DNA of 16,643 nucleotides from Erysipelotrichaceae bacterium (lineage in GTDB: Bacteria; Bacillota_I; Bacilli_A; Erysipelotrichales; Coprobacillaceae), in NCBI GenBank assembly GCA_028698185.1, contig JAQVDW010000035.1, positions 1-16,643 of the forward strand, read 5' to 3'. The notes under the pieces were generated by a model. That model made no database searches. It saw nothing but the letters and a program-made list of their open reading frames with translations, and was not told the origin of the DNA. A program made the translations under genes and the position numbers. Below are positions 1-13,353 of the stretch, one piece after another (position 1 is the first letter of the stretch; every line of letters begins with the position of its first letter).

Positions 1-696
1 GATGAACATTCCTGGAACTGAAGTCAAGGCGTTCAAAGGCGTACCTAATACATACATGAATCCTGAAGGCACGTTGAATGCTCCAGCTGTCCCGACGCTG
101 ATTGCAGTCGCGATCACTTGCAACAGGACGACACTGAAGAATAAAGGCAGGATTGAAGAGAACCCGTCTTGAAGGAATGGTGGAACCACATCCGGCATCT
201 TGATGCGGATATTGCGGTCGGCACAGAATTTTTCAATTTGAACAGATATGAATACAACGATGAATCCGACGAACATCCCTTGGGCTCCAAGGTAAGTCAT
301 GTCGATGGTAGTCAGGCCAGCTTCAGTTGTCACGATAGTTCCCGCAACAAGCAAGAAACAGATAAGCGCATCGATGGCGTTCATCACTGGTGATTTCATT
401 TTAAGGTTTTTCGAATAGTTGTAAGCGAACAATGCCACAACCCATAAAGACAATGAGTTCATGGTGAATTGGTAAGGCATGTAAATGATTTCGTAAATTT
501 TGCTATCAGCTGTGAACAGTCCCAGCATCGTTTCGCCACCGACAGCAGTGATGATTTGGGAAATGGCACCAACCATGATGACCCCCATCAGCCCCATCAT
601 TGAAGCCTGCAAGGCGCTCAGGAACTTGTTGCTGCCTAATTTTTGACCAAAATCCTGAAGCTTGATCATGGCCGAGCTTTGAAATAATTTTTCCAT
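1..696 (-). CDS. PTS lactose/cellobiose-family EIIC permease, first 232 codons; the 3' end lies beyond the left edge of the window
   Basis: Absent from the ORF track because there is no stop in the window. My minus-strand translation from ATG 696..694 reads MEKLFQSSAMIKLQDFGQKLGSNKFLSALQASMMGLMGVIMVGAI...QIEKFCADRNIRIKMPDVVPPFLQDGFSSILPLFF...GMFI and stays open to base 1. It is hydrophobic with an EIIC(Cel)-type IKMPDxVPP block. SD AAGGAGGAGA (701-710) lies 18 nt after the EIIB stop. Confidence 0.85.
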   Translation of the reverse strand, partial: MEKLFQSSAMIKLQDFGQKLGSNKFLSALQASMMGLMGVIMVGAISQIITAVGGETMLGLFTADSKIYEIIYMPYQFTMNSLSLWVVALFAYNYSKNLKMKSPVMNAIDALICFLLVAGTIVTTEAGLTTIDMTYLGAQGMFVGFIVVFISVQIEKFCADRNIRIKMPDVVPPFLQDGFSSILPLFFSVVLLQVIATAISVGTAGAFNVPSGFMYVLGTPLNALTSVPGMFI

Positions 697-714
697 TTTT
701 TCTCCTCCTTTTAA

Positions 715-1014
715 TTAAATCTCAGCATATAATTTTTTAGCAAGTTTCATAATGTTCGGACAGTTGGCGATCGCATAATCGAATGATTCGATTGCCGCAG
801 TTGGCAGTCCTGTATTTTCCTTCACTTCTTTCAAGCGGTAAGAAACCTGAGGCCCCATCATCACGATATCGAAATTTTGGTAAACATCCTGATATTCAGA
901 CAAACCTACTGCCTTGATATCCAAATTCTCACCATTTTCTTTCCAATATTTTTCCATCTTTTTCATTAAGATACTTGTTGACATTCCACCGGCACATACT
1001 AATAAGATTTTCAT
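715..1014 (-). CDS. PTS lactose/cellobiose-family EIIB component
   Basis: 99 aa. The N-terminal MKILLVCAGGMSTS carries the phospho-Cys (C7) typical of EIIB(Cel/Lac). GGAGGA SD upstream. Sits between EIIA and EIIC. Confidence 0.9.
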   Translation of the reverse strand: MKILLVCAGGMSTSILMKKMEKYWKENGENLDIKAVGLSEYQDVYQNFDIVMMGPQVSYRLKEVKENTGLPTAAIESFDYAIANCPNIMKLAKKLYAEI

Positions 1015-1028
1015 TTTCTAATTCCTCC

Positions 1029-1343
1029 CTATTTTGATTTGTAAAGCAAGATGATTTCTTTGATCAGCTCCGATGCCAGCATCGAAGTCATCAGATGGTC
1101 TTGTGAATGGACAAGCAAGACATTGACGTCCTGTCTGTTTCCATTGGCTTCCTTGACAAGCAGGTCCGTTTGCGCCCTGTGCGCCAAAGTCGCCGCCTCT
1201 TCCGATCTTGCCAGAAGCGCCTCGGCCTCGTCGAAGTTTCCTGATTTGGCTTGCTCCAAAGCTTGAAAAGCAAATGAACGCGCATCACCCGCATTAGCTA
1301 TAATTGACATTGAAACTAAATCGTTTTCGCTATCGAATTCCAT
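1029..1343 (-). CDS. PTS lactose/cellobiose-family EIIA component
   Basis: 104 aa. Contains AGDARS and the H-x-Q-D-H-L-M motif (VHSQDHLMT) characteristic of EIIA(Lac/Cel). SD GAAGGAGGG upstream. First gene of the operon. Confidence 0.9.
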   Translation of the reverse strand: MEFDSENDLVSMSIIANAGDARSFAFQALEQAKSGNFDEAEALLARSEEAATLAHRAQTDLLVKEANGNRQDVNVLLVHSQDHLMTSMLASELIKEIILLYKSK

Positions 1344-1385
1344 TTTGTTTCCCTCCTTCTGTATTACGTTTGTTAAGCTGTCTTA

Positions 1386-1414
1386 ATATTAATATACAAG
1401 AGTAAATCTGTCAA
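1386..1414 (-). promoter_or_regulatory. Sigma-A promoter of the PTS operon, TTGACA-N17-TAATAT
   Basis: On the minus strand, -35 TTGACA is at 1414..1409, a 17-nt spacer follows, and -10 TAATAT is at 1391..1386, about 43 nt upstream of the EIIA ATG. Confidence 0.65.
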
Positions 1415-1424
1415 AGCGCTTTCA
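1411..1424 (-). promoter_or_regulatory. cre (CcpA catabolite-responsive element) overlapping the -35 of the PTS promoter
   Basis: The minus strand reads TGAAAGCGCTTTGA, a 13/14 match to TGWAANCGNTNWCA (position 13 is G instead of C). It overlaps the TTGACA -35. Confidence 0.6.
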
Positions 1425-1776
1425 GACCGTGTTCATTTGTGTCTATACAGTAAACGCCTCTGATTATTTTACATTCTGAACTATAAGTGTAATATTTTAG
1501 AGCGTTTTTGCGGATATTGACCCTTGTGTATATTGTTATTGCCAAAACGCCAATTAGTGTTTAAACAAACAGGCCAAAAGTATCGAATGTACCACGCAAT
1601 ATTTTTTTATCTGATGTTACTTTTTGGGTAATATATGGTTATAAAATACCATTACTCCCCTCACCCATCTCTACATCTTATAAATGTAACCGCTTGGTTA
1701 TATACACAAGGAGATAACTTCTCTATACACTCGGTCGTTATTTTTATACTTTTATCTTTTGTTTTGAGATTCGTCA

Positions 1777-1785
1777 TGCTATAAT
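1777..1785 (+). promoter_or_regulatory. Extended -10 promoter TGcTATAAT placed 6 nt before the ATG at 1792, implying a leaderless transcript
   Basis: TG at 1777-1778 and TATAAT at 1780-1785. The predicted transcription start coincides with A of ATG 1792. There is no SD between them. Confidence 0.45.
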
Positions 1786-1791
1786 GGTCAC

Positions 1792-2283
1792 ATGAAACTA
1801 ATTAGAACCTTCGCCTTCACCAGTGATGAATTCTATGATTTTCTTGAGAGCGACCTTTTGGCGAACGCCGCAAAATGCACGAGTAGGCCTTTATGCGTTA
1901 ACGATATTAAGAAAGGATTCAAATATTCAAAGCACGACAGTAACGCACACACTCGCATCGATGTGACAATTCTTGATTACCAGCGCCATCTCCACTACAA
2001 AAGCAAAATCAAATCCATCGGCGATACCATCACAATCGAATATGAAACCCGAAACTGTGAGCAGGGTCTTGAGATAACCTTCAACCAACACTTCGAAAGT
2101 TTCGAAAGCACCAGCCACAACAAGTTCATGGAACTCTTTTCCCAAGCCGTCTATCTCGGGCGGATGACTGACACCCTTTACGACATCGAACGCAAGATTG
2201 TCAAAAGACGTGAGGGGATCTTTGATATCCCGGAGGTCAGTCCCGTCGAACACAAATGGCTGCGCAAACTGGTTTCAAAATAA
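1792..2283 (+). CDS. DUF3284-like small protein of the kind often found next to cellobiose PTS operons
   Basis: 163 aa. The N-terminus MKLIRTFAFTSDEFYDFLESDLL... and the overall length and pattern resemble DUF3284 proteins as I recall them. The context (PTS plus PRD regulator) fits. An in-frame TGA at 1765-1767 precludes any upstream start. Confidence 0.5.
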   Translation: MKLIRTFAFTSDEFYDFLESDLLANAAKCTSRPLCVNDIKKGFKYSKHDSNAHTRIDVTILDYQRHLHYKSKIKSIGDTITIEYETRNCEQGLEITFNQHFESFESTSHNKFMELFSQAVYLGRMTDTLYDIERKIVKRREGIFDIPEVSPVEHKWLRKLVSK

Positions 2284-2305
2284 AAAAAGCCCGCGGGCTT
2301 TTTTA
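2282..2305. terminator. Bidirectional rho-independent terminator shared by convergent genes
   Basis: AAAAAAAGCCCGCGGGCTTTTTT is a GC palindrome flanked by an A-run and a T-run. It overlaps both stop codons (2281-2283 and 2303-2305). Confidence 0.8.
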
Positions 2306-4921
2306 TATTTTCTTTATTATCATGATGATCGTGGCGATTTCGTCATCGTCGATGATCACCTTGAATATCTTTTCCAATGGTTTGATTATTCTGCAAACCA
2401 TCTGATAGTCCTCTTCGAAAACGGAGAGGATTTTGTTTTTGTCGCGGTTTTTGGCGGAACTTTTTCCGTCAAGCAGCCGCTCCACCAGGCAGGCTAGGTG
2501 CATGAACAACCCGCCACGCTGGTCTTCGTTCAGGTTGTAGATCACACTGAATTCGTCGATGATGTCGGGCAGGATAGACTTCAGCTTAGGAATCGAGACG
2601 TAATGGAACTGTTCCTCCAAGAAGGCATAGACCTGGCGGTAGTCGAAAGTGTGGGAATTGATCGGCTCGAACATGATAATCCGGTCAAGGTCGCTCTTGG
2701 AGTTTTCAAATATCTTGGCTATAGGGATGAACGGGATGCCGAACATCTTGGGATCGTAGGTTCCCACAAAACAATGGATCCGGTATGTCTTCTGCAGGGC
2801 CATGACTTCTTTTAGAAGCTCGTCCCGGGAAGATATCGCCAACGGAATGGTCCTGATTTTGAGTTTGGAATACTGGTCAATGTATCGCTTGAGCTGGATG
2901 GCTCCCCCTTCCCCGGTGTGGCAAAGGGTGATGATCGCTTCATTGTGCTTCTCCTCATTCGTGTACATATTGTTTAGCTCGAGGTTGGCCATATGGTAGA
3001 CGTAGTCGATATCGCTTTCCATGGCGCACTTGCGGGCGATGTCGATCCCGACTAGAGTGACGGGGATGTTTATATGGCGTATCTTGACGTCGATTTCCTC
3101 GGAGATGGTGTCAAGCATCGTCTTGATCGATCCCATGTCATATATCACAATCACACCTTGGCCCTGGTCAATTGTCTGGATCAGCTCCTTGATTTGGGCC
3201 ATGGCTTGAGTCGTGTCCATTCCTAGAGAAAGGTCGTAACTATAGGTGTTGTTGCAATGGGTCAGGCTGTTGGTCACATTCATCAACGAATGGGCCGTCA
3301 TGTCCCCGTGCATGATGTAAAGCAGGACCGGATGGCCTTGTTCGCTTGTCTCATCCGATTCGATCAGAAACATCGCGATCAGGACAACCTCCTGGATTGG
3401 CAGCTCCAAATCGAGCTCGTTTTTGACCACCTGAGAAAACTGCATACTGGAAGTATATTCCTGAGGATAGTCCTGGATGATCTTGACAATCTGGTCGTTG
3501 TCAACCCGCTGGTTTTCAAGATTCAATGTCAGCAGCGAATTGAGATGGAGGCAAAGTCCGTAAAAGACGTTGGGCTTGAAAGACCGGTTGAGATCCTTTT
3601 GGGTCACATCGAGAAATTTCCGGACAAGATCAATGACTCTCTGGTCGACAATCTTGGAAAGCTGCTCAAGGTTGTTGAGCGAGTCCATCCCCTTGTAGTA
3701 GCGGTATTTCTTGAAAAGGTTGTTGACGTGGGTGTTCATGACCTTTTCAATTGAAGCGGCATTGATCCCCAGGCTGGCAAGTTCGTTGTACTGGCGCTGG
3801 ATTTCCAGATACATCTCATCATTGAGCGGTTCGTTGATGGTTCCCTGCTTGTCGTAGACGACCGCCTCGCGGTCACCAAGCAGACTGGCTATTTCCAGGC
3901 TGCTGTATTTTAGATTCAACAGCCCTTTTTTTATCGAGCCCTTGAAGTCGTTGACACAGACGCAGATGTCCTGGCCATTCTCGTTGACCACGCGCATATA
4001 GGCATTGGCGCAGGCCGACTTGATTTCCATTGCAAGACCCTTGATATTGTAATCGATGTCCGCAAGCAGCAAGGCCTTGATCGACTCGATGGTGACCTCG
4101 ATATCCCGCTTGGAATTGGTAGCCTCAATCTGGAACAGGTGGTTGATAAGGTCAAGCCGCTCCTTCAACGGACGGGCCTTGAGCTCAGGCAGCTCGATGA
4201 TCACCGGAACAAGCCGGGCCACCGGGCTGTTGCTCGACGCGGTCGAGAGAATCAAGATGACATCCGAACAATCATAGAAGTTTGCCTGTTCGTCCAAGAA
4301 AATCTGGCCCGTTTCCAAGAAACTGTAAAGGCGGCTTAGCTGTTTGGCATCAAGAAGCTCCACATTGTCGATGAAGAGGATCCCCTTTTTCGCCTGGTAG
4401 AAGTAGCTTTTTTGGTAATTCCCATCAACCCCGAAAAGCAGCTCATCAAGAAGGGCGATATTCTTATGATAATGGCGGCAGTCGACATAGACAAAAGGAG
4501 CCTTTTGCCCGAGCACCTTTTTCTCGATCGCGAACTTATGCATCAATGATGCGAAATAGGTTGTCCCGCAACCGACCTTGGCGCTAAGAAGCACATTCAG
4601 GCTGGAATTGGGATACAGGATGGCGGCTTTGGCCAACTGGATCGCATTTTTCAAGCTGCCATTCGAGCCGATCATCTCATTGAAGCACGATTCCTCGCTG
4701 TTCTGGTATTGACTTGAAGCCAGTCGATAATATACGGGCCGGGTGTTAGTCTTGGTCAGCTTGCCTTCCTTGACTAGTTCATTCAATGTCGCACTTACAT
4801 TGGGACGGTGAAGGTTCAAAGCCTCGGCGATATCCTTGGTCTGCAGCCCTTCCTGGTTCTGGCTGTCACTGTAGATCTCTTTTTGAATGTATTCAAATAT
4901 GGTCGTTTTTACTGTTTTCAC
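2303..4921 (-). CDS. LevR-family PRD-containing transcriptional regulator (wHTH, AAA+-like, PRD1, EIIA-Man-like, EIIB-Gat-like, PRD2) with a degenerate sigma-54 activation module
   Basis: 872 aa with a GTG start and AAAGGAG SD 7 nt upstream. The N-terminal wHTH includes DIAEALNLHRPNVSATLNELV. There is LevR-like collinearity: GSNGSLKNAIQLAKAAILYPNSSLNVLL..., PRD1 FYGLCLHLNSLL (H459), EIIA-Man-like LLYIMHGDMTAHS (H538), EIIB-Gat-like ITLCHTGEGGA (C667) and PRD2 GGLFMHLACLVERL (H808). Confidence 0.85.
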   Translation of the reverse strand: MKTVKTTIFEYIQKEIYSDSQNQEGLQTKDIAEALNLHRPNVSATLNELVKEGKLTKTNTRPVYYRLASSQYQNSEESCFNEMIGSNGSLKNAIQLAKAAILYPNSSLNVLLSAKVGCGTTYFASLMHKFAIEKKVLGQKAPFVYVDCRHYHKNIALLDELLFGVDGNYQKSYFYQAKKGILFIDNVELLDAKQLSRLYSFLETGQIFLDEQANFYDCSDVILILSTASSNSPVARLVPVIIELPELKARPLKERLDLINHLFQIEATNSKRDIEVTIESIKALLLADIDYNIKGLAMEIKSACANAYMRVVNENGQDICVCVNDFKGSIKKGLLNLKYSSLEIASLLGDREAVVYDKQGTINEPLNDEMYLEIQRQYNELASLGINAASIEKVMNTHVNNLFKKYRYYKGMDSLNNLEQLSKIVDQRVIDLVRKFLDVTQKDLNRSFKPNVFYGLCLHLNSLLTLNLENQRVDNDQIVKIIQDYPQEYTSSMQFSQVVKNELDLELPIQEVVLIAMFLIESDETSEQGHPVLLYIMHGDMTAHSLMNVTNSLTHCNNTYSYDLSLGMDTTQAMAQIKELIQTIDQGQGVIVIYDMGSIKTMLDTISEEIDVKIRHINIPVTLVGIDIARKCAMESDIDYVYHMANLELNNMYTNEEKHNEAIITLCHTGEGGAIQLKRYIDQYSKLKIRTIPLAISSRDELLKEVMALQKTYRIHCFVGTYDPKMFGIPFIPIAKIFENSKSDLDRIIMFEPINSHTFDYRQVYAFLEEQFHYVSIPKLKSILPDIIDEFSVIYNLNEDQRGGLFMHLACLVERLLDGKSSAKNRDKNKILSVFEEDYQMVCRIIKPLEKIFKVIIDDDEIATIIMIIKKI

Positions 4922-4955
4922 GGACGCGCTCCTTTAATGTATGATAACTGTATTA

Positions 4956-4984
4956 ATTATATTCTATACAAAAAAGCCGTAAAA
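4956..4984 (-). promoter_or_regulatory. Candidate promoter of the regulator gene, TTTTAC-N17-TATAAT
   Basis: Good -10 TATAAT (4961..4956) but a weak -35, about 35 nt upstream of the GTG start. Confidence 0.35.
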
Positions 4985-5017
4985 ATATACAATAAAATGA
5001 AAATATGCTCAAAAGAT

Positions 5018-5938
5018 CTAGAAAAGCGTCTCGACAATATTGCTTTTTTGATCCACCTTCTTTATCTGGCTTTCCGGTTTGACCTGGCCCACAAGCATTG
5101 GAGCAGAGGGGTCATGGCTCCGGTGGTTGATTTTTACCTGATGGTAATCGGAATTGGCATAACAGTAAAGGCAGCCATGCATGCAGGTGTTGTACACGCC
5201 GATGTCGCTCCCAATCAGACAGTCACACCCCGGACGGGCCGGACTCTTCCTGCCAAGGTCAAACCTGACATCAAGCGCCTTTTCCAGGACCGCCTGAGTC
5301 ATGCACCCTGCCACATCAATTCCATATTGCCCTAGGTGGTCGCCTTCATGGCATGTCTGGATCCTGATTTGATATTTGGCAGCTATCGCCACGATGCTTC
5401 TGGCAAGATGGTGCTGGGTCTCAAGGTCGACCTCTTTTATCCCCGGGAAATTCCGCCTGGTCTTCTGGTAAAGGTCGATGAAGCTGATGACGCAGGTCGA
5501 CGTGTAGCCGGAAAGCTGCTTGGCCATCAGTCCGAAAGCCAGCAGGTGTTTTTCCACCGGCCAGCGCCGATTCACGATGATCGGATCGTAGCGCCAGACA
5601 ACCTTTTTTTTGCCGACCTTATTCGAAAGTTCCTGGAAGCTTCTGATAACTTCCTTGACCTTGGGCACATTCGGTTCGATGTCGGTCGAATAAGGCGTGA
5701 TTGTGACAAACCATAACTGATTGAACCGGCCGATTTCATCGAGACGCCCAATCATCGGTTGGGGATTCTTGGTGCAAAAACAGAGGCAGTCAACGACCTG
5801 GGGGTCGAGTTGGTACTCATATATCATCTTTTCATTGTAGGGGCTTTGGACCAGGACATATCCCTCCCTGACCCGGTTGTAGAACCACTCGCTGTAAAAA
5901 GCCGGGATGTCGGTCCGCTGGCCGGTATTGATTATCAT
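5018..5938 (-). CDS. DUF1848 domain protein with a C-terminal Cys cluster; function unknown
   Basis: The N-terminus MIINTGQRTDIPAFYSEWFYNRVREGY matches the DUF1848 signature. The C-terminal cluster is GCDCLIGSDIGVYNTCMHGCLYCYAN. I moved the start from 5953 to ATG 5938 because GGAGGA lies 7 nt upstream of it and actually overlaps the 5953 ATG. Confidence 0.75.
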   Translation of the reverse strand: MIINTGQRTDIPAFYSEWFYNRVREGYVLVQSPYNEKMIYEYQLDPQVVDCLCFCTKNPQPMIGRLDEIGRFNQLWFVTITPYSTDIEPNVPKVKEVIRSFQELSNKVGKKKVVWRYDPIIVNRRWPVEKHLLAFGLMAKQLSGYTSTCVISFIDLYQKTRRNFPGIKEVDLETQHHLARSIVAIAAKYQIRIQTCHEGDHLGQYGIDVAGCMTQAVLEKALDVRFDLGRKSPARPGCDCLIGSDIGVYNTCMHGCLYCYANSDYHQVKINHRSHDPSAPMLVGQVKPESQIKKVDQKSNIVETLF

Positions 5939-5968
5939 GATTTTATCCTCCATTTCAGTGCTTAAGCC

Positions 5969-5977
5969 ATTGTATCA
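5969..5977 (-). promoter_or_regulatory. Extended -10 promoter TGaTACAAT for the DUF1848 gene
   Basis: The minus strand reads ...AAAAGGTGATACAATGGC..., about 30 nt upstream of the start and downstream of the preceding terminator. Confidence 0.4.
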
Positions 5978-5992
5978 CCTTTTGGCTAAAGT

Positions 5993-6019
5993 AAAAAGCC
6001 GGACGTTTTCAAACATCCG
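5993..6019 (-). terminator. Hairpin plus T-run after the GyrI-like gene
   Basis: The minus strand reads CGGATGTTTGAAAACGTCCGGCTTTTT. The stop codon sits in the loop. The stem has one mismatch. Confidence 0.5.
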
Positions 6020-6488
6020 ACTCACTGGCTGCGATGACCATTTCGATTTTCGTCAAAAGAAGCTCTTGGGGAAATTTAGGTGAATTGTAGAAGTATTCGT
6101 AAGCCGGCAAGACGATCTTGTAGCCGTTGTCCGCCACCCACTGTTCTAGTTTGTTGTAAGTTTCGCCCATGCTGTCGTACGGTCCCTGGTGGAAAGCGAA
6201 GACCCGCAATCCCGGCGGTATTTCAAACAATTTGAGCAGACCTTTGCCTTGAATCCTGTTTTTTACCGGATAGCCAACGATCGCTTCGATTGCCTTATCA
6301 TCCCATATGTAGAACCCCACAAAAGAAACTCCCGAAGGCATTTCACCAATCGATTTTAGATATTCGCGGATCTCCTTGCGGCTTTGTTTCAATATTGAGG
6401 AAAATTCCCGGGGTGTGGTCTTCACATTGATGACCAGGGCATACTCGCCGCCATGATCGACCTTCAAGATATCAGTAATTTGGCCCAT
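6009..6488 (-). CDS. GyrI-like small-molecule-binding domain protein (stand-alone effector-binding domain)
   Basis: The start is taken at MGQITDILKV... (ATG 6488) with SD GAGGTGG. The ~160-aa length and the C-terminal PAYEYFYNSPKFPQELLLTKIEMVI are typical of GyrI-like/SOUL-type domains. The track's longer start at 6569 lacks an SD and overlaps the upstream ORF. Confidence 0.6.
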   Translation of the reverse strand: MGQITDILKVDHGGEYALVINVKTTPREFSSILKQSRKEIREYLKSIGEMPSGVSFVGFYIWDDKAIEAIVGYPVKNRIQGKGLLKLFEIPPGLRVFAFHQGPYDSMGETYNKLEQWVADNGYKIVLPAYEYFYNSPKFPQELLLTKIEMVIAASESDV

Positions 6489-6489
6489 T

Positions 6490-6726
6490 TCATCCACCTC
6501 GATTCTCTTTGCCTGTTTCGACCAGGCGGACTTCATCATCGACCGTATTCTTGATCGGCCCGGGATCATGCAGATCGCCGATTACAGGATCGATCCCAGG
6601 ATCCAGTTTCGAAATGGAATTCCGGCGCCAAAGCGCCCGTACTTTCTGGTTGTCTTCAACCCGGATTTTCACAACGTTGCTGCCTGGTTTGCCTGTAGCC
6701 CCCGTAACTAAATATACCACGCCCAT
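6490..6726 (-). pseudogene. Truncated NmrA/atypical-SDR-like gene, N-terminal Rossmann segment only (~78 aa)
   Basis: MGVVYLVTGATGKPGSNVVKIRVEDNQKVRALWRR...VIGDLHDPGPIKNTVDD has the TGATGxxG NAD(P)-binding start of 250-300-aa NmrA-like proteins but stops after ~78 codons. The stop overlaps the next gene's start region (TGAAATG). Confidence 0.5.
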
Positions 6727-6762
6727 TTTCATCACCTTTGCTTTTGTAGGTATAGCGAATCG

Positions 6763-6796
6763 AAAAAAATGTAAAATACGTTGGCAAAACCAACGT
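6763..6796 (-). terminator. Hairpin ACGTTGG-N5-CCAACGT followed by a T-rich tract; either a terminator for the HD operon or a leader attenuator/operator
   Basis: A perfect 7-bp stem (6778-6784 with 6790-6796) is followed on the minus strand by ATTTTACATTTTTTT. It lies between a promoter-like element and the NmrA-like start. Confidence 0.4.
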
Positions 6797-6808
6797 TTTC
6801 CCATTTCC

Positions 6809-6837
6809 ATTCTAGCACATGAAGAACCCAAATTCAA
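6809..6837 (-). promoter_or_regulatory. Sigma-A promoter TTGAAT-N17-TAGAAT with a TGc extension
   Basis: On the minus strand, -35 is at 6837..6832 and -10 at 6814..6809, preceded by TGC. It lies upstream of the NmrA-like/GyrI-like pair. Confidence 0.45.
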
Positions 6838-6966
6838 TCGTTCCTATTATCCAGAAAAGCCTTATCGGGTTGCGTCATGCGCCAAAAAACTAGAACTTCA
6901 AACAACTCCTAGCAGGATTATCAAATCACAACAAGATATAGTCTTCACTGGTTGCCCCCTGGTAAA

Positions 6967-7098
6967 TTATTCTGTTTTGGACGGTACTGTTTTGCGGTTG
7001 CCCATCAGACGATGATAGAAAGGTCCAGGTTTATTGCCGCATTCATGGTAACCATTATCGGGCATGTAGTCAGTGCCACAACCGGATTTCACATCCAT
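6967..7098 (-). CDS. Small hypothetical Cys/His-containing protein (43 aa)
   Basis: MDVKSGCGTDYMPDNGYHECGNKPGPFYHRLMGNRKTVPSKTE. An AAGGCGG SD-like element lies 5 nt upstream of ATG 7098. It sits just downstream of the HD gene. I recognise no family. The longer track ORF starting at 7167 has no SD. Confidence 0.3.
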   Translation of the reverse strand: MDVKSGCGTDYMPDNGYHECGNKPGPFYHRLMGNRKTVPSKTE

Positions 7099-7191
7099 TG
7101 TTCCGCCTTGATTGTCCTGAAATTTCAAAATGAAAAATATCATGAATATTATCCATGCATCACACATTTAAAACAGTCGGCCAGGATTATT

Positions 7192-7686
7192 TTAGACCCG
7201 ATTAAGGTAGATCGAATCCAAAAGGGCCAGCCCGGTCGATGTTTTGAAAACATTCTTTCTGATGGAAAGGATCTGGTCACCGGTCATTTTTCCTTCGTCG
7301 AAATTCACCAAGAAATCGGCTTCTAGGAGGATCTGGTAGTCGACATTGTCAACCTTTGTGAAAGTATGATGATGACCCACCAGGAAGCTGACCCGGTCGC
7401 AGACCGCACTGTTGTAGCCAAGCCCGTCAAGAAAATCGTAGGCCAGCTTTTCACCTTCTATTTCCTGATATTTGCCGTTGGTGTTTCCGTACTTTTCCCG
7501 GCACAAAGGACAGGCAATGTCGTGGACAATCGCCGCCAATTCCACATAGAGCTGCAACTCAGTGGCCAGACATTCTTTTTGTCCGATCAGCCGCGCGAAG
7601 CTGTGGACCTTGAGAAAATGACTGATGTCATGGGTGTTTCCTTTTGAATATTCAATCATCCTGATTATTGTATCGTTGATCTCCAT
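7192..7686 (-). CDS. HD-domain metal-dependent phosphohydrolase
   Basis: 164 aa. Shows the H...HD...HHH...D pattern (KVHSFA, IVHDIA, LVGHHHT, LEADFL). AAGGAG SD 7 nt upstream. Confidence 0.8.
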   Translation of the reverse strand: MEINDTIIRMIEYSKGNTHDISHFLKVHSFARLIGQKECLATELQLYVELAAIVHDIACPLCREKYGNTNGKYQEIEGEKLAYDFLDGLGYNSAVCDRVSFLVGHHHTFTKVDNVDYQILLEADFLVNFDEGKMTGDQILSIRKNVFKTSTGLALLDSIYLNRV

Positions 7687-7708
7687 ACCTATACTCCTTA
7701 TTTGACTT

Positions 7709-7738
7709 ATTATAACCCAAATGTCGAAGACATGCCAA
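7709..7738 (-). promoter_or_regulatory. Sigma-A promoter TTGGCA-N18-TATAAT for the HD gene
   Basis: On the minus strand, -35 is at 7738..7733 and -10 at 7714..7709. Confidence 0.5.
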
Positions 7739-7803
7739 ACATGATAATGTCATATTTCGCAATGGAAACGGTTACATTTTGGATATCGGTAGCCGTTGTT
7801 TCA

Positions 7804-7812
7804 TGTTACAAT
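7804..7812 (+). promoter_or_regulatory. Extended -10 promoter TGtTACAAT for the lipoprotein gene
   Basis: Located about 33 nt upstream of ATG 7845. A strong GAGGAGGAAG SD follows. Confidence 0.45.
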
Positions 7813-7844
7813 TATGTTACTTTATGTGAGGAGGAAGTATTTCA

Positions 7845-9152
7845 ATGAAAAAATCAAGATTGATTTTATCAAGTTTTTTGGCACTGGGCTTGGTCGCCTG
7901 CTCCAGTGGTGACACCGGGAGCGACACCATCGCAGGAACTTACAGTTACCAGGTAACCGGATATGACTGGGGTGCCGGGGTGAACAAAGCCGTCCTGGCA
8001 CTGGACCACAAGTTGACCCAGATTGACGCGCAGGATCTAAACGTTGTCGAAACCAAACAGGTGACCGATTGGTCGGATTCGACATTTCCGGTTAACGTGG
8101 TCGACATCGACCGGACAATCACCGATGTCTATCTTTGCGACGCCGATGGAAACAAGGTCGAAGGCGACAGCAAATATGTGGCAGTGGAAATGTACGTCAG
8201 CCCCAATGACGGCTCACCGCTTCTTTACTCGATGGCGACATCACGCAACACCTGGTCTGATCCATACACGCTGGCTTTCACTTTAAGCGAAGGGGCTACT
8301 GTCGATTCGTTGGGAACAACAGTTACGGCATTCACCGTGGAGGGCGCAGCGACAACTTACACAACATCGGCCAGCATGTTTGAAGAAGGTTCTTATGAAA
8401 CAGAATCAGGTCAGACTTATGGCTACGTTACTTACGAACCGACTGAAAAATCAGATACCCTGTTTGTCTGGCTTCATGGTGGCGGAGAAGGTGCCATCGA
8501 AGGTTCCGATGTCTATATCCCTGTGCTCGCAAACAAGGTGACCGCTCTGGCAGGCGAAGAATTCCAGACCGCCATCGGAGGAGCTGCAATCCTTGCTCCC
8601 CAATCGCCTACTTTCTGGATGGACAGCGGCGATGGCACTTGGACCGGTGACAACAAGACAATGTACACTGAAAGCCTGATGCAGCTCATCGACAACTACA
8701 AAACCGAATACGGTGCTACCAAAGTTGTCGTAGCCGGATGTTCGAACGGCGGATTCATGACTCTTGACCTTATGATGAATTACCCGGATTACTTCACTGC
8801 CGGAGTTCCTATCTGTGAGGGAAAACTTGACGCAGCTGTGACCGATGAACAGATTGCTGCCTTGAAAGATCAGGCAATGTTCTTCATCTACGCGGAAAAC
8901 GACACAACTTTGGACCCTAGTATTTATTCTGAGCCGACAATCGCAAGATTGAAAGAAGCCGGAGCGACCAACCTGATGGTGGCATCACCGGATACGGTTA
9001 TCGACACTTCAGGTACATACAAAGACGCCGATGGCAATCCTTATTCCTACGCGGGTCACTGGTCTTGGATCTACTTCGACAACAACGAAGCTTTCGACGA
9101 CACAACCGGAAAAGACTCATGGTCTTGGATCGCTGACCAATTGAACAAATAA
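7845..9152 (+). CDS. Secreted lipoprotein with a C-terminal alpha/beta-hydrolase (esterase) domain
   Basis: Signal peptide with lipobox MKKSRLILSSFLALGLVAC (C19). Nucleophile elbow VVAGCSNGGFM (G-x-S-x-G). Candidate Asp in YAENDTT and candidate His in YAGHWSW. The HGGGEG segment is oxyanion-region-like. The N-terminal ~190 aa is unassigned. Confidence 0.75.
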   Translation: MKKSRLILSSFLALGLVACSSGDTGSDTIAGTYSYQVTGYDWGAGVNKAVLALDHKLTQIDAQDLNVVETKQVTDWSDSTFPVNVVDIDRTITDVYLCDADGNKVEGDSKYVAVEMYVSPNDGSPLLYSMATSRNTWSDPYTLAFTLSEGATVDSLGTTVTAFTVEGAATTYTTSASMFEEGSYETESGQTYGYVTYEPTEKSDTLFVWLHGGGEGAIEGSDVYIPVLANKVTALAGEEFQTAIGGAAILAPQSPTFWMDSGDGTWTGDNKTMYTESLMQLIDNYKTEYGATKVVVAGCSNGGFMTLDLMMNYPDYFTAGVPICEGKLDAAVTDEQIAALKDQAMFFIYAENDTTLDPSIYSEPTIARLKEAGATNLMVASPDTVIDTSGTYKDADGNPYSYAGHWSWIYFDNNEAFDDTTGKDSWSWIADQLNK

Positions 9153-9216
9153 TCTTTCCTTTTGAATCCTATTCCTTTATCTTCTATTCCATACCAATAA
9201 CCTATAATCCAATTTG

Positions 9217-9243
9217 AAAAAGATGGCTCCGGCCATCTTTTTT
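9217..9243. terminator. Bidirectional rho-independent terminator
   Basis: AAAAAGATGGC-TCCG-GCCATCTTTTTT lies between the convergent lipoprotein and permease genes. Confidence 0.8.
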
Positions 9244-9252
9244 CCTTCCCGA

Positions 9253-9783
9253 TCACAACGATTGGGTTTTTTCATATAATCGTTCGATCTCGCTATCCGG
9301 GATAAAGCGGGTCAAAGTAAAGGCGATGGCCACGATTCCTGGAATGTCCACCAGCAAGCGGACCAGGGCGAATTTCAATCCCAACGCCGACATCTCGAAC
9401 AGAAGCAGAGGAATCTTGGTCGTCGACCATGCCCCCACAAATATCAGCACATTGGAAAACTTGACGCCCTTTTTCATGAACACCGCCGCAACAGGAAACG
9501 CCCCGTACAACGGTCCGGCCGCTACCGAACCGACAACAAAGGAAAGAACGATACCCTTGATACCTGAACCCGGTCCCATGTAGCGAGCCATTGTTTCCTT
9601 GGACACCCAGACATCAAGCAAGCCAAGCAGGATAAATACCGGCGGGATGATCAAAAGCATCTCCTTGAGGGAATAGACAGTCACCCCCACCGCTTTTGCG
9701 CCCAGCTCCCGGTTGATCAGGTAAAGACCAATCATCAAAACCAGTGAGCCCAATACAAAACGATATCTTTTCAACATATTCAT
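9253..9783 (-). CDS. Half-size permease subunit (ArsP_1/DUF318-type repeat unit), second gene of a split pair
   Basis: 176 aa and polytopic. GSVAAGPLYGAFPVAAVFMKKGVKFSNVLIFVGAWS resembles the repeat unit of the 334-aa permease at 13384..14388. Its start is 3 nt after the upstream stop, with a GGTGGTG SD inside the upstream gene. Confidence 0.65.
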   Translation of the reverse strand: MNMLKRYRFVLGSLVLMIGLYLINRELGAKAVGVTVYSLKEMLLIIPPVFILLGLLDVWVSKETMARYMGPGSGIKGIVLSFVVGSVAAGPLYGAFPVAAVFMKKGVKFSNVLIFVGAWSTTKIPLLLFEMSALGLKFALVRLLVDIPGIVAIAFTLTRFIPDSEIERLYEKTQSL

Positions 9784-9786
9784 TAT

Positions 9787-10260
9787 TTACACCACCAATC
9801 CGATAATCAAAGCCACAACAAAAGAAAACAGGAATGCCAACAGGTTGCGGGCAAAGGTAAGCCGTTTGCCAAAATATTTGATTTCCACCGGGATGGTGAT
9901 TACCCCGACCATCATCAGCGCCGAAACGAAGGCCCCGATCTGCATGTATCCCGCCCCGTTTTCCAGAAGCATGGCAGCCATGGGAAAGGCGACGAAACCG
10001 GGAATCAGCGTAACCGCCCCGGCCAGGACGGCGATGACCACACCAATCCAACCAGATGATGCCCCTATAAGGCTCGAGATCGCCTTGCTGTCAAACAGCG
10101 ACAGCAGGATTCCAACCATGACGATCACCCCGAGAAACTGGGGCAGGATATTCTCGAACGAGCGCCATGATTTTTTCAAAGCCATTATTGTCCTATTCTT
10201 ATCCTTGAAAACGGACAAAGCCAAAAGCCCGAAGGCTGTTCCATATAGAAATACATTCAC
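9787..10260 (-). CDS. Half-size permease subunit (ArsP_1/DUF318-type repeat unit), first gene of a split pair
   Basis: 157 aa with a GTG start and AAGGAGGA SD 6 nt upstream. GAVTLIPGFVAFPMAAMLLENGAGYMQIGAFVSALMM parallels VPVYADIFGTIPVAEALLAKGAQLGVVLAFMMA of the full-length paralog. Confidence 0.65.
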   Translation of the reverse strand: MNVFLYGTAFGLLALSVFKDKNRTIMALKKSWRSFENILPQFLGVIVMVGILLSLFDSKAISSLIGASSGWIGVVIAVLAGAVTLIPGFVAFPMAAMLLENGAGYMQIGAFVSALMMVGVITIPVEIKYFGKRLTFARNLLAFLFSFVVALIIGLVV

Positions 10261-10290
10261 ACCAAATCCTCCTTAAGCAATATCGGGTAT

Positions 10291-10319
10291 ATATTATTGA
10301 CTTAAGTCGATAATGTCAA
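10291..10319 (-). promoter_or_regulatory. Sigma-A promoter TTGACA-N17-TAATAT with a palindromic operator in the spacer
   Basis: On the minus strand, -35 is at 10319..10314 and -10 at 10296..10291. The spacer holds ATCGACTTAAGTCAAT, a 14/16 palindrome with a perfect GACTTAAGTC core. Confidence 0.6.
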
Positions 10320-10331
10320 TATATATGCACC

Positions 10332-10356
10332 AAAAAATCACAGGTTGCCCCGTGAT
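10332..10356 (-). terminator. Rho-independent terminator after the ferritin-like gene
   Basis: The minus strand reads ATCACGGG-GCAA-CCTGTGAT followed by TTTTTT: an 8-bp stem with one G.U pair and a GNRA loop. It begins directly after stop codon 10357-10359. Confidence 0.8.
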
Positions 10357-10659
10357 TTATTCCAGATCTTCGATTTCTTCCTCGACTTCTTCGCGGCCCT
10401 CTTGATAGAAAGCTTCTTCATCAGGTTCGAGCTCCCTCAACAACCGCAAAAATTCACCGGCATGGACCCGCTCTTCATCGGCGATGTCCTCAAGAACCGC
10501 AATCGCCAGCTTGTTGTCGATTGATTCGGCCAACTGCATATACATCTGGATCGCTTCGTATTCGGCCGCGACCATGAACCGGATGGCTCTGATCAACTCG
10601 GCATCACTCAGTTTCCGGTCATTGGCCAGTCCGGAAAATGGGCTTGCAAACTCAGGCAT
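10357..10659 (-). CDS. EncFtn-like two-helix half-ferritin (rubrerythrin/ferritin-like superfamily) with no recognisable encapsulin-targeting tail
   Basis: 100 aa starting MPEFASPFSGLANDRKLSDAELIRAIRFMVAAEYEAIQMYMQLAES...DIADEERVHAGEFLRLL. E33-x6-Y40 and E63-x-x-H66 have the spacing of the EncFtn di-iron ligands. The acidic tail is EEVEEEIEDLE. GGAGGTGA SD upstream. Confidence 0.65.
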   Translation of the reverse strand: MPEFASPFSGLANDRKLSDAELIRAIRFMVAAEYEAIQMYMQLAESIDNKLAIAVLEDIADEERVHAGEFLRLLRELEPDEEAFYQEGREEVEEEIEDLE

Positions 10660-10696
10660 TCAAATCACCTCCACTATCATGCCTATCTACATAAAC

Positions 10697-10725
10697 ATTC
10701 TACCATTTTTTGAAAGCGCTAACAA
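10697..10725 (-). promoter_or_regulatory. Sigma-A promoter TTGTTA-N17-TAGAAT with a TGg extension, for the ferritin-like gene
   Basis: On the minus strand, -35 is at 10725..10720 and -10 at 10702..10697, preceded by TGG. Confidence 0.55.
10711..10724 (+). promoter_or_regulatory. cre box with a perfect consensus match
   Basis: TGAAAGCGCTAACA matches TGWAANCGNTNWCA at 14/14 positions. It overlaps the -35 and spacer of the ferritin-like promoter and ends 17 nt upstream of the -35 of the divergent ABC promoter. Confidence 0.6.
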
Positions 10726-10740
10726 GTATTTAGAATTTGT

Positions 10741-10769
10741 TTGACATATGTTCATAATGATTTTACAAT
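10741..10769 (+). promoter_or_regulatory. Sigma-A promoter TTGACA-N17-TACAAT for the ABC operon
   Basis: -35 at 10741-10746 and -10 at 10764-10769. Because the promoter covers the track's ATG at 10748, that start is unlikely. Confidence 0.65.
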
Positions 10770-10798
10770 TTTATTATAAACAGACAGGAGGCCTAAAC

Positions 10799-11764
10799 AT
10801 GGACATCATCAGCGTTTCCAATTTGAGCAAGCAATTTGGCGACTTCAAAGCCGTAGACAACATAAGCTTTACCGTTAAAAAAGGGGAAATATTCGGATTC
10901 CTCGGTCCCAACGGCGCCGGCAAGACCACGACAATAAATATGTTGATCGGTTTGATGAAACCCGGCACCGGAGCCATCAAAATCGCCGGTTATTGCGGCA
11001 TTCGAAAAATCAAAAAAATCCAGGAGATAATCGGGGTTGTCCCGGACGAAAGCAATCTCTATGATGATCTTTCCGGTTACGAAAACCTGGTTTTTGTCGC
11101 CTCATTATACGGTCTTGATAAAAAAAACAGCCACGAAAAGGCCATCAGCCTGCTGGCAACATTCGATCTGCTGGAAGCCAAAGACCGCCTTTTCAAAGCA
11201 TACTCCAAAGGTATGAAAAGGAAACTGACAATGGCGGCAGGAATCATTCATGATCCTGAAATCTTGTTTTTAGATGAGCCGACTACCGGCATTGACGTCA
11301 TGAGCGCCCGGAAAATCCGCGAGATGATCAAGGATTTGAACCGACAAGGAACAACAATTTTTTTGACGACCCATTACATCGAAGATGCGCAACGGCTTTG
11401 TGATCGCATCGGGTTCATAGTTGCCGGCAAAATAGTCGCGATCGACAGACTTGATTCATTAATGGCCCAACCCCCCGGTGAAAACATCATGGAAATAACC
11501 AGTGAGTCCGATTTGGCGGTTGCCGCCACTAAAATCCCGATGATATTTCCAGGCATGGAAATTGTCCAAGCCGGCCATAAATCAATCCGCATAAAGGCAC
11601 CCTTTGAAATTGAACTGTTGCCATTGCTGGAATATTTCGCAGTTCAAGGGCACAAAATAAAAGAAGCCCGGCTTGTGGCCAGGACTCTTGAAGATGTCTT
11701 CGTTCAGATAACCGGCACTGCCTTGTCAAATCCATCTAACAACCAGGGAGGGAAACGCAAATGA
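10799..11764 (+). CDS. ABC transporter ATP-binding protein (ABC-2/DrrA-type exporter subfamily)
   Basis: The start is moved to ATG 10799 (MDIISVSNLSKQFG), with AGGAGG 7 nt upstream. Walker A GPNGAGKT, signature YSKGMKRKL, Walker B ILFLDEPTTG and H-loop LTTHY. The stop overlaps the next start (ATGA). Confidence 0.9.
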   Translation: MDIISVSNLSKQFGDFKAVDNISFTVKKGEIFGFLGPNGAGKTTTINMLIGLMKPGTGAIKIAGYCGIRKIKKIQEIIGVVPDESNLYDDLSGYENLVFVASLYGLDKKNSHEKAISLLATFDLLEAKDRLFKAYSKGMKRKLTMAAGIIHDPEILFLDEPTTGIDVMSARKIREMIKDLNRQGTTIFLTTHYIEDAQRLCDRIGFIVAGKIVAIDRLDSLMAQPPGENIMEITSESDLAVAATKIPMIFPGMEIVQAGHKSIRIKAPFEIELLPLLEYFAVQGHKIKEARLVARTLEDVFVQITGTALSNPSNNQGGKRK

Positions 11765-12495
11765 AGAAGATGTCCGCCTATTTGAGTATCTTGAAAAAGG
11801 ATATGAAAAACTATTATCTCAAACCACCGAACCTTAGCTGGGGCATCATTTTCCCAATATCATGGAGCCTGATGTTCTTCCTGCGGTCAACCAGCGCCCT
11901 GGATTATCGGGAGATACTGCCGGGAATCATGGCCCTTTCAATCCTGTTTGGAACCACCTCGATGCTTGCAGTCACGATAACCTTCGAAAGGAAAAGCCGC
12001 TCCTTTGACCGGCTTTTGATTGCACCAATTTCCCTGAACCTCTTGATGTTTGCCAAAACTACCGGTGCCATTCTTTTTGGGGTGGTCAATGCATTTGTCC
12101 CAGTTGTCCTGGCATCGTTTATCTCGAGCCTGGATGGGATAAACTGGCTACTTGTTTTCGGGGGCGTACTGTTAATCGCCATAACCTCAGCCTTCTTGGG
12201 CCTGGCCATTGCCGTATCCGTCAGCGAAGTTTTTGAAGCGCAGACTTTTTCCAATTTTTTCCGTTTTCCGATGATGTTCCTGTGCGGTCTTTTCATACCG
12301 ATTTCCACTCTTCCCTCGCTGCTCTGGCCCTTGTCGTACATGCTGCCCCTGACTTATGGCGTGGATATCCTCAAAGCCGCCATCAACAGCGACAATCATC
12401 TTAATGTGTTTTTTTGCGTCGCTGTCCTGGTAGTTTTCGCCTGGCTGCTATTTGCCATCAGCACATCAAATATCAAGAAAAAGTGGATCCGTTAG
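11761..12495 (+). CDS. ABC-2 type transporter permease
   Basis: 244 aa with about 6 TM segments. Its start is translationally coupled to the ATPase stop. ABC-2 family layout. Confidence 0.85.
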   Translation: MKKMSAYLSILKKDMKNYYLKPPNLSWGIIFPISWSLMFFLRSTSALDYREILPGIMALSILFGTTSMLAVTITFERKSRSFDRLLIAPISLNLLMFAKTTGAILFGVVNAFVPVVLASFISSLDGINWLLVFGGVLLIAITSAFLGLAIAVSVSEVFEAQTFSNFFRFPMMFLCGLFIPISTLPSLLWPLSYMLPLTYGVDILKAAINSDNHLNVFFCVAVLVVFAWLLFAISTSNIKKKWIR

Positions 12496-12581
12496 AGGAT
12501 GCGCTTTTCCCTGCAACGGTTCTAGTCATTTTGAATCATCCCGGACACGGTGGCTGTCGAAGCTTGTTTAAGTCCGGTGCC

Positions 12582-13254: not shown

Positions 13255-13313
13255 CGCCTTCTCCTTTTATCTGCATTGCTTTTAGTCACATTTTGAATGA
13301 TCTTTGCTTAAGC

Positions 13314-13322: not shown

Positions 13323-13353
13323 CATCAGAACCGATTAGCCAAAACCGGGAAGT

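Follow-up and report, generated by a model that had tools for sequence, protein, structure and literature searches.

A LevR-architecture regulator with a degenerate AAA+ module at a lactose/cellobiose-family phosphotransferase locus of an Erysipelotrichaceae bacterium

LevR, CelR and ManR constitute the textbook link between the phosphotransferase system (PTS) and sigma-54 in Gram-positive bacteria, and proteins of their architecture are often labelled in databases as sigma-54-dependent activators. A stretch of 16,643 nucleotides from an Erysipelotrichaceae bacterium (assembly GCA_028698185.1, contig JAQVDW010000035.1, positions 1 to 16,643 of the forward strand; this whole stretch is termed "the window" below) encodes a regulator of this architecture, whose sigma-54-activator-type AAA+ module was proposed, from a first reading of the letters, to be catalytically dead. 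This raises the question of how a regulator built like a sigma-54 enhancer-binding protein (EBP) might act once the determinants of sigma-54 activation are gone, and at which kind of promoter. The comparative analysis described here makes it likely, at a good level of confidence, that the protein is a sigma-54-independent, direct regulator of the cel-type PTS locus next to which it is encoded. The features of the regulator gene are as follows.

2303..4921, (-) strand: LevR-architecture regulator gene, 872 residues, GTG start at 4921 and stop codon at 2303-2305 (open reading frame (ORF) list, translation, Pfam, NCBIfam)
4718..4921, (-) strand: N-terminal winged helix-turn-helix (wHTH), residues 1-68 (several Pfam wHTH models at residues 14-68; aligns with the DNA-binding domain of canonical CelR)
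3932..4672, (-) strand: degenerate AAA+ module of the sigma-54-activator type, residues 84-330 (weak Sigma54_activat match, Foldseek, conservation)
4559..4585, (-) strand: Walker A remnant SAKVGCGTT, residues 113-121, with T120 at the position of the P-loop Lys (NtrC1 has GESGVGKE, CelR has GETGVGKS)
4394..4435, (-) strand: shortened L1 region FGVDGNYQKSYFYQ, residues 163-176, with the GAFTGA loop deleted (gap of 6-7 residues opposite GA[FY]TGA)
4364..4381, (-) strand: Walker B remnant ILFIDN, residues 181-186, with N186 at the position of the catalytic Glu (aligned to canonical FLDE)
2306..3661, (-) strand: regulatory half with PRD1 (H459), EIIA-Man-like (H538), EIIB-Gat-like (C667) and PRD2 (H808) parts (two Pfam PRD matches and one EIIA-man match)

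The AAA+ module was compared with NtrC1 (PDB 1NY6) and with three canonical LevR-type proteins from annotated plasmids, namely a CelR-like protein of Bacillus thuringiensis, a regulator of C. difficile and a regulator of L. sakei that adjoins rpoN. The Sigma54_activat profile matches residues 84-207 of the regulator (profile positions 2-122 of 168) at 40.8 bits against a cut-off of 20.2, while the canonical LevR-type proteins score 132-138 bits. The blocks flanking the catalytic motifs are clearly homologous to those of the canonical proteins; the motifs themselves are not kept. At Walker A, the protein reads AKVGCGTT versus the canonical GE[TS]GVGK[ES], so that, besides the Lys, the first Gly of GxxGxGK[ST] is replaced, in this case by Ala. 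Neither a G..G.GK[ST] string nor a GAFTGA-like string occurs elsewhere in the 872-residue protein, and IALLDE at residues 155-160 was rejected as a Walker B on the grounds that it sits in a helix ahead of L1 and off the Walker B strand. A second deletion has removed five residues ahead of the block that reads RRIP in canonical proteins; R236, within ARLVP, aligns with the first Arg of this block. The position equivalent to the Arg finger varies among the closest relatives (NR, NQ or QR) and follows immediately upon the five-residue deletion.

The original prediction, which placed the anomaly at 4142-4669 (residues 85-260, corresponding to the alpha/beta subdomain of the module), holds in its essentials. 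Its quoted peptides and residue numbers (SAKVGCGTT, the L1 segment, ILFIDN, the four phosphorylatable residues and three flanking blocks) are all correct, and profile and pairwise alignments alike confirm that the Walker A Lys, the Walker B Glu and GAFTGA are missing and that no intact copy exists elsewhere in the protein. Its wider statement that the AAA+ determinants had been lost is accurate for Walker A, Walker B and GAFTGA and probably goes too far for R236, a candidate equivalent of the Arg finger that is retained. Likewise, its notion of targeted substitutions within an unchanged fold is borne out as regards the fold and incomplete as regards the substitutions, given that two deletions, in the L1 loop and in the pre-sensor segment, have occurred as well.

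The AlphaFold2 model of the AAA+ module is predicted with a local distance difference score (pLDDT) of 85-92. Its best Foldseek matches in the PDB are PspF, NtrC1 and FleQ with template modelling (TM) scores of 0.70-0.76, the range being 0.68-0.76 when ZraR and LuxO are included, and VpsR and NtrX are also among the matches. The wHTH is modelled with a pLDDT of about 80-86. According to this model, the AAA+ fold of bacterial EBPs is retained; judged by its sequence, its catalytic chemistry is lost and the protein cannot be a conventional sigma-54 activator.

The remainder of the protein conforms to the LevR type. The domain order is wHTH, AAA+, PRD1, EIIA-Man-like, EIIB-Gat-like and a truncated PRD2, where the EIIB-Gat-like part has no Pfam match and is assigned only from the alignment and from its alpha/beta model. 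Among the NCBIfam models, that of the LevR-type regulator DagR scores highest, and the protein is collinear with it across residues 73-866; the score of 255 bits is, however, far below the cut-off of 1400, and the regulator is therefore a distant relative of DagR and no equivalog. With B. thuringiensis CelR it is collinear end to end at an identity of only about 28%, and H459, H538, C667 and H808, which are invariant in the clade alignment (A1), align exactly with H467, H546, C682 and H822 of that protein. The activity of B. thuringiensis CelR requires H546 and C682; its H822 is the conserved PRD2 His and the counterpart of the inhibitory site in LevR and in C. acetobutylicum CelR, although in B. 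thuringiensis CelR itself the inhibitory effect came from H839 rather than H822 (PMC10864463). The collinearity with LevR and the intact set of PTS-phosphorylation residues, both claimed at the outset, are thus corroborated by Pfam domains and by the exact alignment; the four residues are present, and their phosphorylation is predicted from them. Mga and EIIA-Mtl domains were not found in the regulator by Pfam, so that the architecture is not that of MtlR or LicR.

The loss of the catalytic motifs recurs in relatives. A search of a protein collection clustered at 90% yielded 355 matches, the best 120 of which show 52-100% identity and stem from Clostridium, Dielma, Anaerorhabdus, Erysipelothrix and many further assemblies; the protein identical to the regulator (P0001) is already contained in the public protein collection, solely from run assemblies. 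All of the 115 full-length homologues with 52-89% identity carry G[CS]G[TS] and FID[NYSKH] and are devoid of GAFTGA. GCGT[TS] is strictly conserved within the close clade, its Cys being almost invariant; where canonical proteins have the Walker B Glu, the clade shows N, Y, S, K, H or G. Species-representative genomes, scanned for the regulator family, yielded 78 loci, the closest being that of a Coprobacillaceae metagenome-assembled genome (93% protein identity of the regulator; about 80% nucleotide identity over a collinear window); the others belong to Clostridium, many Erysipelotrichales, Lachnospiraceae, Oscillospiraceae and Lactobacillales, the latter comprising Trichococcus, Pediococcus siamensis, Schleiferilactobacillus, Lactiplantibacillus nangangensis, Ca. 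Enterococcus testudinis and several Streptococcus. None of 65 intact relatives from named Firmicute genomes possesses GAFTGA or the Walker B Glu; the distant ones among them (29-41% identity) keep GxxGxGK[SA]. Since the degenerate motifs are common to the 115 homologues and the 65 genome relatives, they are due neither to chance nor to sequencing error, and the conservation of the degenerate motifs across orthologs, from which a pseudo-ATPase clade was to be recognised, extends over a large clade.

The boundary between the canonical and the degenerate proteins was approached with an exhaustive HMMER search using the N-terminal 345 residues, which at E <= 1e-3 returned 1516 clusters, 355 of them reaching E <= 1e-30. 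Representatives of the best 150 clusters were sorted by motif together with reference sequences (155 in total). Sixty-one are fully canonical with all three motifs, four are canonical but for a one-residue variant of one motif, and 90 representatives lack both GAFTGA and the Walker B Glu and are referred to as "dead"; 28 of these 90 retain the P-loop Lys in a full GxxGxGK[ST]. The class in which GAFTGA is lost and the Glu kept is empty among the 155, i.e., the two losses are perfectly coupled, and the motif counts suggest an order of decay in which sigma-54 contact and hydrolysis were lost first and nucleotide binding later. In a tree computed from the C-terminal PRD/EII half only, by the crude method of neighbour-joining with midpoint rooting, 66 of the 68 full-length dead sequences included form one pure clade. 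The frequency of the majority residue in the close clade is 0.69 for the AAA+ module, 0.71 for the wHTH and 0.67 for the PRD part, compared with 0.39 for the linker. On these sequence comparisons, the regulator is to be regarded as a functional pseudo-ATPase of a large, conserved family under purifying selection and as no decaying relic.

Proteins of this kind are also encountered on plasmids. L. plantarum plasmid pLp1 encodes (L080, 4944-7472) a LevR-architecture "PRD domain-containing protein" devoid of GAFTGA and the Walker B Glu (GTGKL and CIKN), and the same type is found on Pediococcus plasmids (H11, H12, H23 and H33); these plasmids are mobilisable, and a mannose-family PTS adjoins the gene. 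In the C-terminal tree the pLp1 protein falls outside the main dead clade, which may reflect an independent loss. In three further loci, of Caproiciproducens sp. MSJ-32 (L009), Streptococcus sp. oral taxon 056 (L056) and Lactobacillus colini (L062), the regulator ORF is interrupted by stops after 49, 219 and 95 codons, respectively, with tblastn similarity going on along the gene; pseudogenes or assembly frameshifts are possible explanations.

The regulator gene is separated by a small DUF3284 gene from a divergent control region and a PTS operon, and the relevant elements are the following.

1..1343, (-) strand: PTS operon of the lactose/cellobiose family with EIIA (1029-1343), EIIB (715-1014) and EIIC (1-696, running off the window) (Pfam PTS_IIA, PTS_IIB, PTS_EIIC)
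1344..1791, both strands: divergent control region of 448 bp between the DUF3284 gene and the PTS operon (box density, promoters)
1386..1414, (-) strand: predicted sigma-A promoter of the PTS operon, TTGACA, 17-nucleotide spacer, TAATAT (promoter scan, 10 of 12 consensus matches)
1411..1424, (-) strand: cre-like site for CcpA, TGAAAGCGCTTTGA, overlapping the -35 hexamer of the PTS promoter (sequence, versus consensus TGWAANCGNTNWCA)
4956..4983, (-) strand: predicted sigma-A promoter of the regulator gene, TTTACG, 16-nucleotide spacer, TATAAT (promoter scan), flanked by box-like TGTATA and CATACATTAA

Upstream of the PTS operon, no -24/-12 site (consensus TGGCAC-N5-TTGCA, up to two mismatches) was found in the window or in 34 related loci, and no -24/-12 promoter exists anywhere within the 16.6-kb window. 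In two canonical control loci (L081 and L082), the same scan did recover sigma-54 promoters, namely TGGCAT-N5-TTGCT and TGGCAC-N5-TTGCT (TGGCATATAAGTTGCT and TGGCACGATTATTGCT). A -24/-12 promoter depending on this protein, which had been named as one of the observations that would refute the idea of a dead activator, is hence absent from the locus by a scan that detects such promoters where they occur. Instead, a sigma-A-type promoter with at least 10 of 12 consensus matches and a 17-bp spacer is present in 25 of the 35 loci scanned, most with a perfect TTGACA; it precedes the EIIA start codon by 36-77 nucleotides in all but one, and the predicted leader measures about 36-70 nucleotides in all but one locus. 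RNA-based control by antitermination or a riboswitch was considered and is unlikely, since Rfam is silent at the locus and the predicted leader is short. A cre-like site similar to that in the window, judged by the consensus quoted in PMC10864463, is found in 17 of 35 related loci, and catabolite repression by CcpA seems to be layered over the PRD regulator.

The control regions share a further element. TATACAC(TA) is their most widely shared k-mer, occurring in 34 of 35, and relative to the predicted start site these boxes are placed at -181 and -150 (forward), at -69 (reverse), sometimes at about -86, and at -16 (forward); the -16 box borders directly on the -10 hexamer. The latter arrangement is found in 23 of the above 25 promoters. 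Across the 35 loci, box density amounts to 7.6 per kb in the control region and 0.13 per kb outside, a 57-fold difference; many of the outside copies are those located just upstream of the regulator gene, and a few others precede additional PTS genes. In 22 of 46 related loci, exact boxes immediately precede the regulator gene, often as a tandem GTGTATAAT that overlaps a -10-like TATAAT. In the window, exact TATACAC occurs at 1526-1532 (-), 1701-1707 (+) and 1724-1730 (+), all three inside 1344-1791, while 0.67 copies would be expected in the whole 16.6 kb. Two of them are part of a perfect 12-nucleotide inverted pair, ATATACACAAGG, at 1522-1533 and 1700-1711, 166 nucleotides apart; near-copies are located at 1554-1564 and 1443-1453, and a box-like TTGTATA lies in the spacer of the PTS promoter beside the -10. 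By their position, the boxes would represent the operator of the regulator's wHTH.

In three genomes, TATACAC clusters were also noted off the main control region, i.e., in L014 (17083-17092, about 300 bp upstream of a second EIIB gene), in L020 (13613-13978) and in L055 (16960-17021). Such clusters suggest that the regulon of some genomes includes further PTS or glucosidase operons.

Comparison with characterised systems shows which of these properties are inherited and which are specific. Canonical LevR-type EBPs (B. subtilis LevR, ManR, and the CelR proteins of C. acetobutylicum, L. monocytogenes, B. thuringiensis and E. faecalis) have the same domain order and the same His/His/Cys/His set; they are likewise linked to a lactose/cellobiose-family PTS operon and a DUF3284 (CelI-type) gene and are likewise served by boxes 100-200 bp upstream of the promoter together with a cre site. 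In contrast to these, the present regulator lacks the Walker A Lys, the Walker B Glu and GAFTGA, its target has -35/-10 instead of -24/-12 elements, and an additional box is placed at about -16. The NCBI name of the clade members is "PRD domain-containing protein" and not sigma-54-dependent regulator.

EBP homologues that have abandoned sigma-54 are not without precedent. VpsR of Vibrio cholerae lacks the residues for sigma-54 binding and ATP hydrolysis and activates sigma-70 RNA polymerase (PMC6158489). It is the best sequence match of the regulator in the PDB as well as a Foldseek match, and it resembles the regulator in being an EBP homologue without catalytic and sigma-54-contact residues at a sigma-70-type promoter. 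Unlike the regulator, VpsR belongs to the response regulators of proteobacteria, carries a REC domain and, at the C-terminus, a helix-turn-helix (HTH), is controlled by cyclic di-GMP (c-di-GMP) in place of PTS domains, and acts as an activator. Among the EBP homologues whose GAFTGA is not functional, TyrR, DhaR, HupR, VpsR and probably B. subtilis YplP work, or are predicted to work, with sigma-70 (Francke et al. 2011, PMC3162934). The NtrC proteins of Rhodobacter and Caulobacter are also EBP homologues of this kind; the members of this TyrR/DhaR/HupR/NtrC/YplP group differ from the regulator in their sensory domains and in having an HTH of the Fis type at the C-terminus; ATP binding persists in several of them, and none has PRD or EII domains. 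TyrR is both a repressor and an activator. From the other side, MtlR, LicR, B. subtilis ManR and streptococcal CelR are DNA-binding activators of PTS operons at sigma-A promoters, which are likewise controlled by PTS phosphorylation and operate without sigma-54. This MtlR/LicR type is composed of HTH, Mga, PRD, PRD, EIIB-Gat and EIIA-Mtl, contains no AAA+ module and is not homologous to the N-terminal 350 residues of the regulator. Pneumococcal CelR, which regulates a cellobiose locus also encoding EIIA, EIIB and EIIC (PMC3478281), belongs here; CelR of S. pneumoniae and S. agalactiae, described as "LevR-like" (PMC11976118), would, if that description held, have been a precedent from a genus listed as lacking sigma-54; it was rejected as such, given that the pneumococcal protein has the order HTH-Mga-PRD-PRD-EIIB-EIIA (PMC3478281).

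Dead EBP homologues and sigma-54-free PRD regulators are both known already. The regulator can be compared to VpsR, TyrR and DhaR, and what appears to be new is that its dead AAA+ module is part of a LevR architecture. A survey of Clostridiales EBPs checked for GAFTGA, and PRD-type proteins lacking it are not discussed there (PMC6615313). In the literature searched, which left most subscription papers outside, regulators that combine the LevR architecture with a dead AAA+ module were not found described; the family may have been noted elsewhere.

These observations converge, at somewhat better than even confidence, on a regulator that is independent of sigma-54, dead as an ATPase, controlled by the PTS and acting via its own boxes, with repression or switching by DNA looping as its probable mode. 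It would descend from a LevR/CelR-type enhancer-binding protein that depended on sigma-54 and would no longer use either sigma-54 or ATP hydrolysis. The wHTH probably binds TATACAC(TA) at the control region of the PTS operon, which the regulator gene adjoins and which it would accordingly be placed to control, and at its own promoter. The dead AAA+ shell most likely serves as a non-catalytic oligomerisation or architectural scaffold that would let several wHTH domains hold distant boxes together in a DNA loop. The near-consensus core promoter and the box abutting or overlapping the -10, in related genomes also at the regulator's own promoter, indicate that the bound state is repressive; the sign of regulation would therefore be negative for the PTS operon and include negative autoregulation. 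PTS phosphorylation, at H538 and C667 from the HPr/EI side and at H808 from the EIIB side, would relieve or rearrange binding when sugar is present and glucose absent, and additional activation from the -69 site is conceivable. As to the initial claim that the protein can no longer remodel sigma-54 holoenzyme and must act otherwise, it gains support from the motif loss, the lack of -24/-12 elements and the sigma-A-type promoters; among the mechanisms offered along with it, the layout of the cis-elements favours direct repression or switching at a sigma-A promoter over sequestration.

That the regulator is specifically a repressor or a switch is the less secure part of this proposal, with the scales tipped only slightly, if at all, in its favour, and several observations weigh against the proposal as a whole. 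Characterised PRD-containing DNA-binding regulators (LevR, CelR, ManR, MtlR and LicR) are activators, which would make a repressor unusual. In the window, the -16 box is a one-mismatch copy in reverse orientation, and the regulator's promoter is accompanied only by degenerate boxes (4934-4944 and 4985-4995). The spacings between the boxes, 31, 81 and 53 bp, are not all whole helical turns. The promoters are consensus predictions only, the link between boxes and regulator is one of co-occurrence, and R236 together with the strictly conserved P-loop remnant leaves room for some ligand binding.

The most serious competitor is a pure classical activator of the sigma-A promoter in the manner of MtlR, LicR or VpsR, which, once phosphorylated by HPr and dephosphorylated at PRD2, would use the -181, -150 and -69 boxes to recruit sigma-A RNA polymerase or to stimulate it; the box beside the -10 would then be incidental. 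Every characterised PRD-containing DNA-binding regulator activates (PMC10864463, PMC11976118), a box at about -69 takes the typical position of a class I activator, the -150 and -181 boxes resemble the upstream activating sequences of canonical LevR and CelR, and in VpsR there is a dead EBP homologue that activates sigma-70 RNA polymerase (PMC6158489). We nevertheless consider it unlikely, at something like one chance in a few, as a core promoter with 10-12 of 12 consensus positions and, in most loci, a perfect TTGACA should need no activator, and as a box that abuts the -10 in 23 of 35 loci and overlaps TATAAT at the regulator's promoter has a geometry which usually means occlusion. Less probable still is that the degenerate pocket is a non-hydrolysing sensor of a nucleotide, a second messenger or a sugar phosphate, an idea which could coexist with the favoured one. 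TyrR with ATP, and FleQ and VpsR with c-di-GMP, provide precedents for such a sensor. It is favoured by the strict conservation of GCGT[TS] in the close clade, including a Cys that hardly varies, by purifying selection on the pocket region and by the full P-loop kept in the 28 dead representatives noted above. The window's own clade, however, has lost the phosphate-binding Lys and the first P-loop Gly, the genomic context points to no ligand, and signal input is already provided by the PRD/EII domains.

An indirect input into sigma-54 transcription, whereby the protein, in the role of a poison subunit or anti-activator, would join a canonical LevR/CelR paralogue in mixed rings or sequester it, or else would supply the DNA binding for a partner with active ATPase, appears very improbable. 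It could draw on the retained AAA+ fold with its possible ring interfaces and its Arg-finger-equivalent Arg, and on the fact that Clostridium species which carry the clade often possess sigma-54 and canonical PRD-type EBPs (PMC6615313). Yet the regulator has its own wHTH, boxes and a linked PTS operon with a sigma-A-type promoter in place of -24/-12 elements, no canonical EBP is encoded as a conserved neighbour in related loci, and relatives exist in Streptococcus, a genus of which S. agalactiae is listed without sigma-54 and EBP by Francke et al. (PMC3162934), according to whom sigma-54 is present in only some Firmicutes. That the gene is a functionless, decaying relic of a sigma-54 activator might be read from the lost catalytic motifs and from the interrupted ORFs in L009, L056 and L062; this is effectively refuted by conservation, with the ORF intact at 872 residues, 115 full-length homologues at 52-89% identity, an AAA+ module as conserved as the other domains, and synteny and cis-elements kept across orders.

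Beyond the single locus, the data invite a more far-reaching evolutionary interpretation, which as a whole we put forward as tentative and somewhat short of an even chance. A lineage of Firmicute LevR-type regulators, represented by at least 90 clusters at 50% identity and largely monophyletic, would have switched its sigma factor: ATPase activity and sigma-54 contact would have been lost together, a strong -35/-10 would have replaced the -24/-12 elements of the target with a box placed at about -16, the former site of sigma-54, and the dead ring, retained as a DNA-looping scaffold under PTS control, would toggle the promoter from a looped, repressed state to an open or activated one and back, i.e., an AraC-like switch would have been made from an enhancer-binding protein.

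If the clade is a large, conserved sister family of LevR, CelR and ManR that is located at sigma-A promoters and has lost both ATPase and sigma-54 contact, the consequences would reach into annotation, since JGI describes clade members as "LevR / regulator with AAA-type ATPase domain" and regulon predictions would have to be corrected for many gut Firmicutes (Clostridium, Erysipelotrichales, Lactobacillales and Lachnospiraceae). The clade would also offer a natural experiment on what use an AAA+ ring is to a transcription factor once catalysis is lost, it would show the co-evolution of regulator and promoter upon exchange of the sigma factor, and TATACAC(TA) would become a simple cis-element for the prediction of beta-glucoside and cellodextrin regulons.

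The genes surrounding the control region form a conserved locus. The order regulator, DUF3284 gene and EIIA-EIIB-EIIC recurs in about 45 loci of Clostridium, Erysipelotrichales, Lactobacillales and Lachnospiraceae, the DUF3284 gene holding the same position in about 40 of the related loci. In E. faecalis, the DUF3284 protein CelI is one of three small proteins needed for the uptake of cellotetraose by CelC2 (PMC11976118). The two remaining features of this part of the window are listed below.

1792..2283, (+) strand: DUF3284 gene, 163 residues, CelI-type accessory protein of cellodextrin PTS systems, convergent with the regulator gene (Pfam PF11687, 67.7 bits)
2283..2304, both strands: terminator-like hairpin, bidirectional, between the convergent regulator and DUF3284 genes (terminator scan)

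Upstream of the DUF3284 gene (1777-1794, +), an extended -10 promoter, TGCTATAAT, ends 6 nucleotides ahead of the ATG, and a Shine-Dalgarno sequence is missing there. About 31 of 35 related loci (among L001-L061) have kept the arrangement TGnTATAAT-N6-ATG. In several orders of Firmicutes, the mRNA of the DUF3284 gene is probably leaderless.

Two further observations concern distal parts of the window. A match to the group II intron (Rfam RF00029, domains V/VI, 61.4 bits) is located at 16528-16612 (-), and immediately 3' of it an ORF of glycoside hydrolase family 1 (GH1; phospho-beta-glucosidase type) at 15308-16504 (-) gives a Pfam alignment beginning only with position 70 of the profile. A group II intron appears to have entered a truncated GH1 gene or the sequence just ahead of it, the rest lying beyond the end of the window. 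In addition, two adjacent ORFs at 9253-9783 (-) and 9787-10260 (-), of 176 and 157 residues, each align with the N-terminal half of the profile ArsP_1 ("predicted permease"), and a full-length ArsP_1 gene (334 residues) is found 3 kb away at 13384-14388 (-); the pair of half-size ORFs may represent a permease divided over two genes or a paralogue that has been disrupted.

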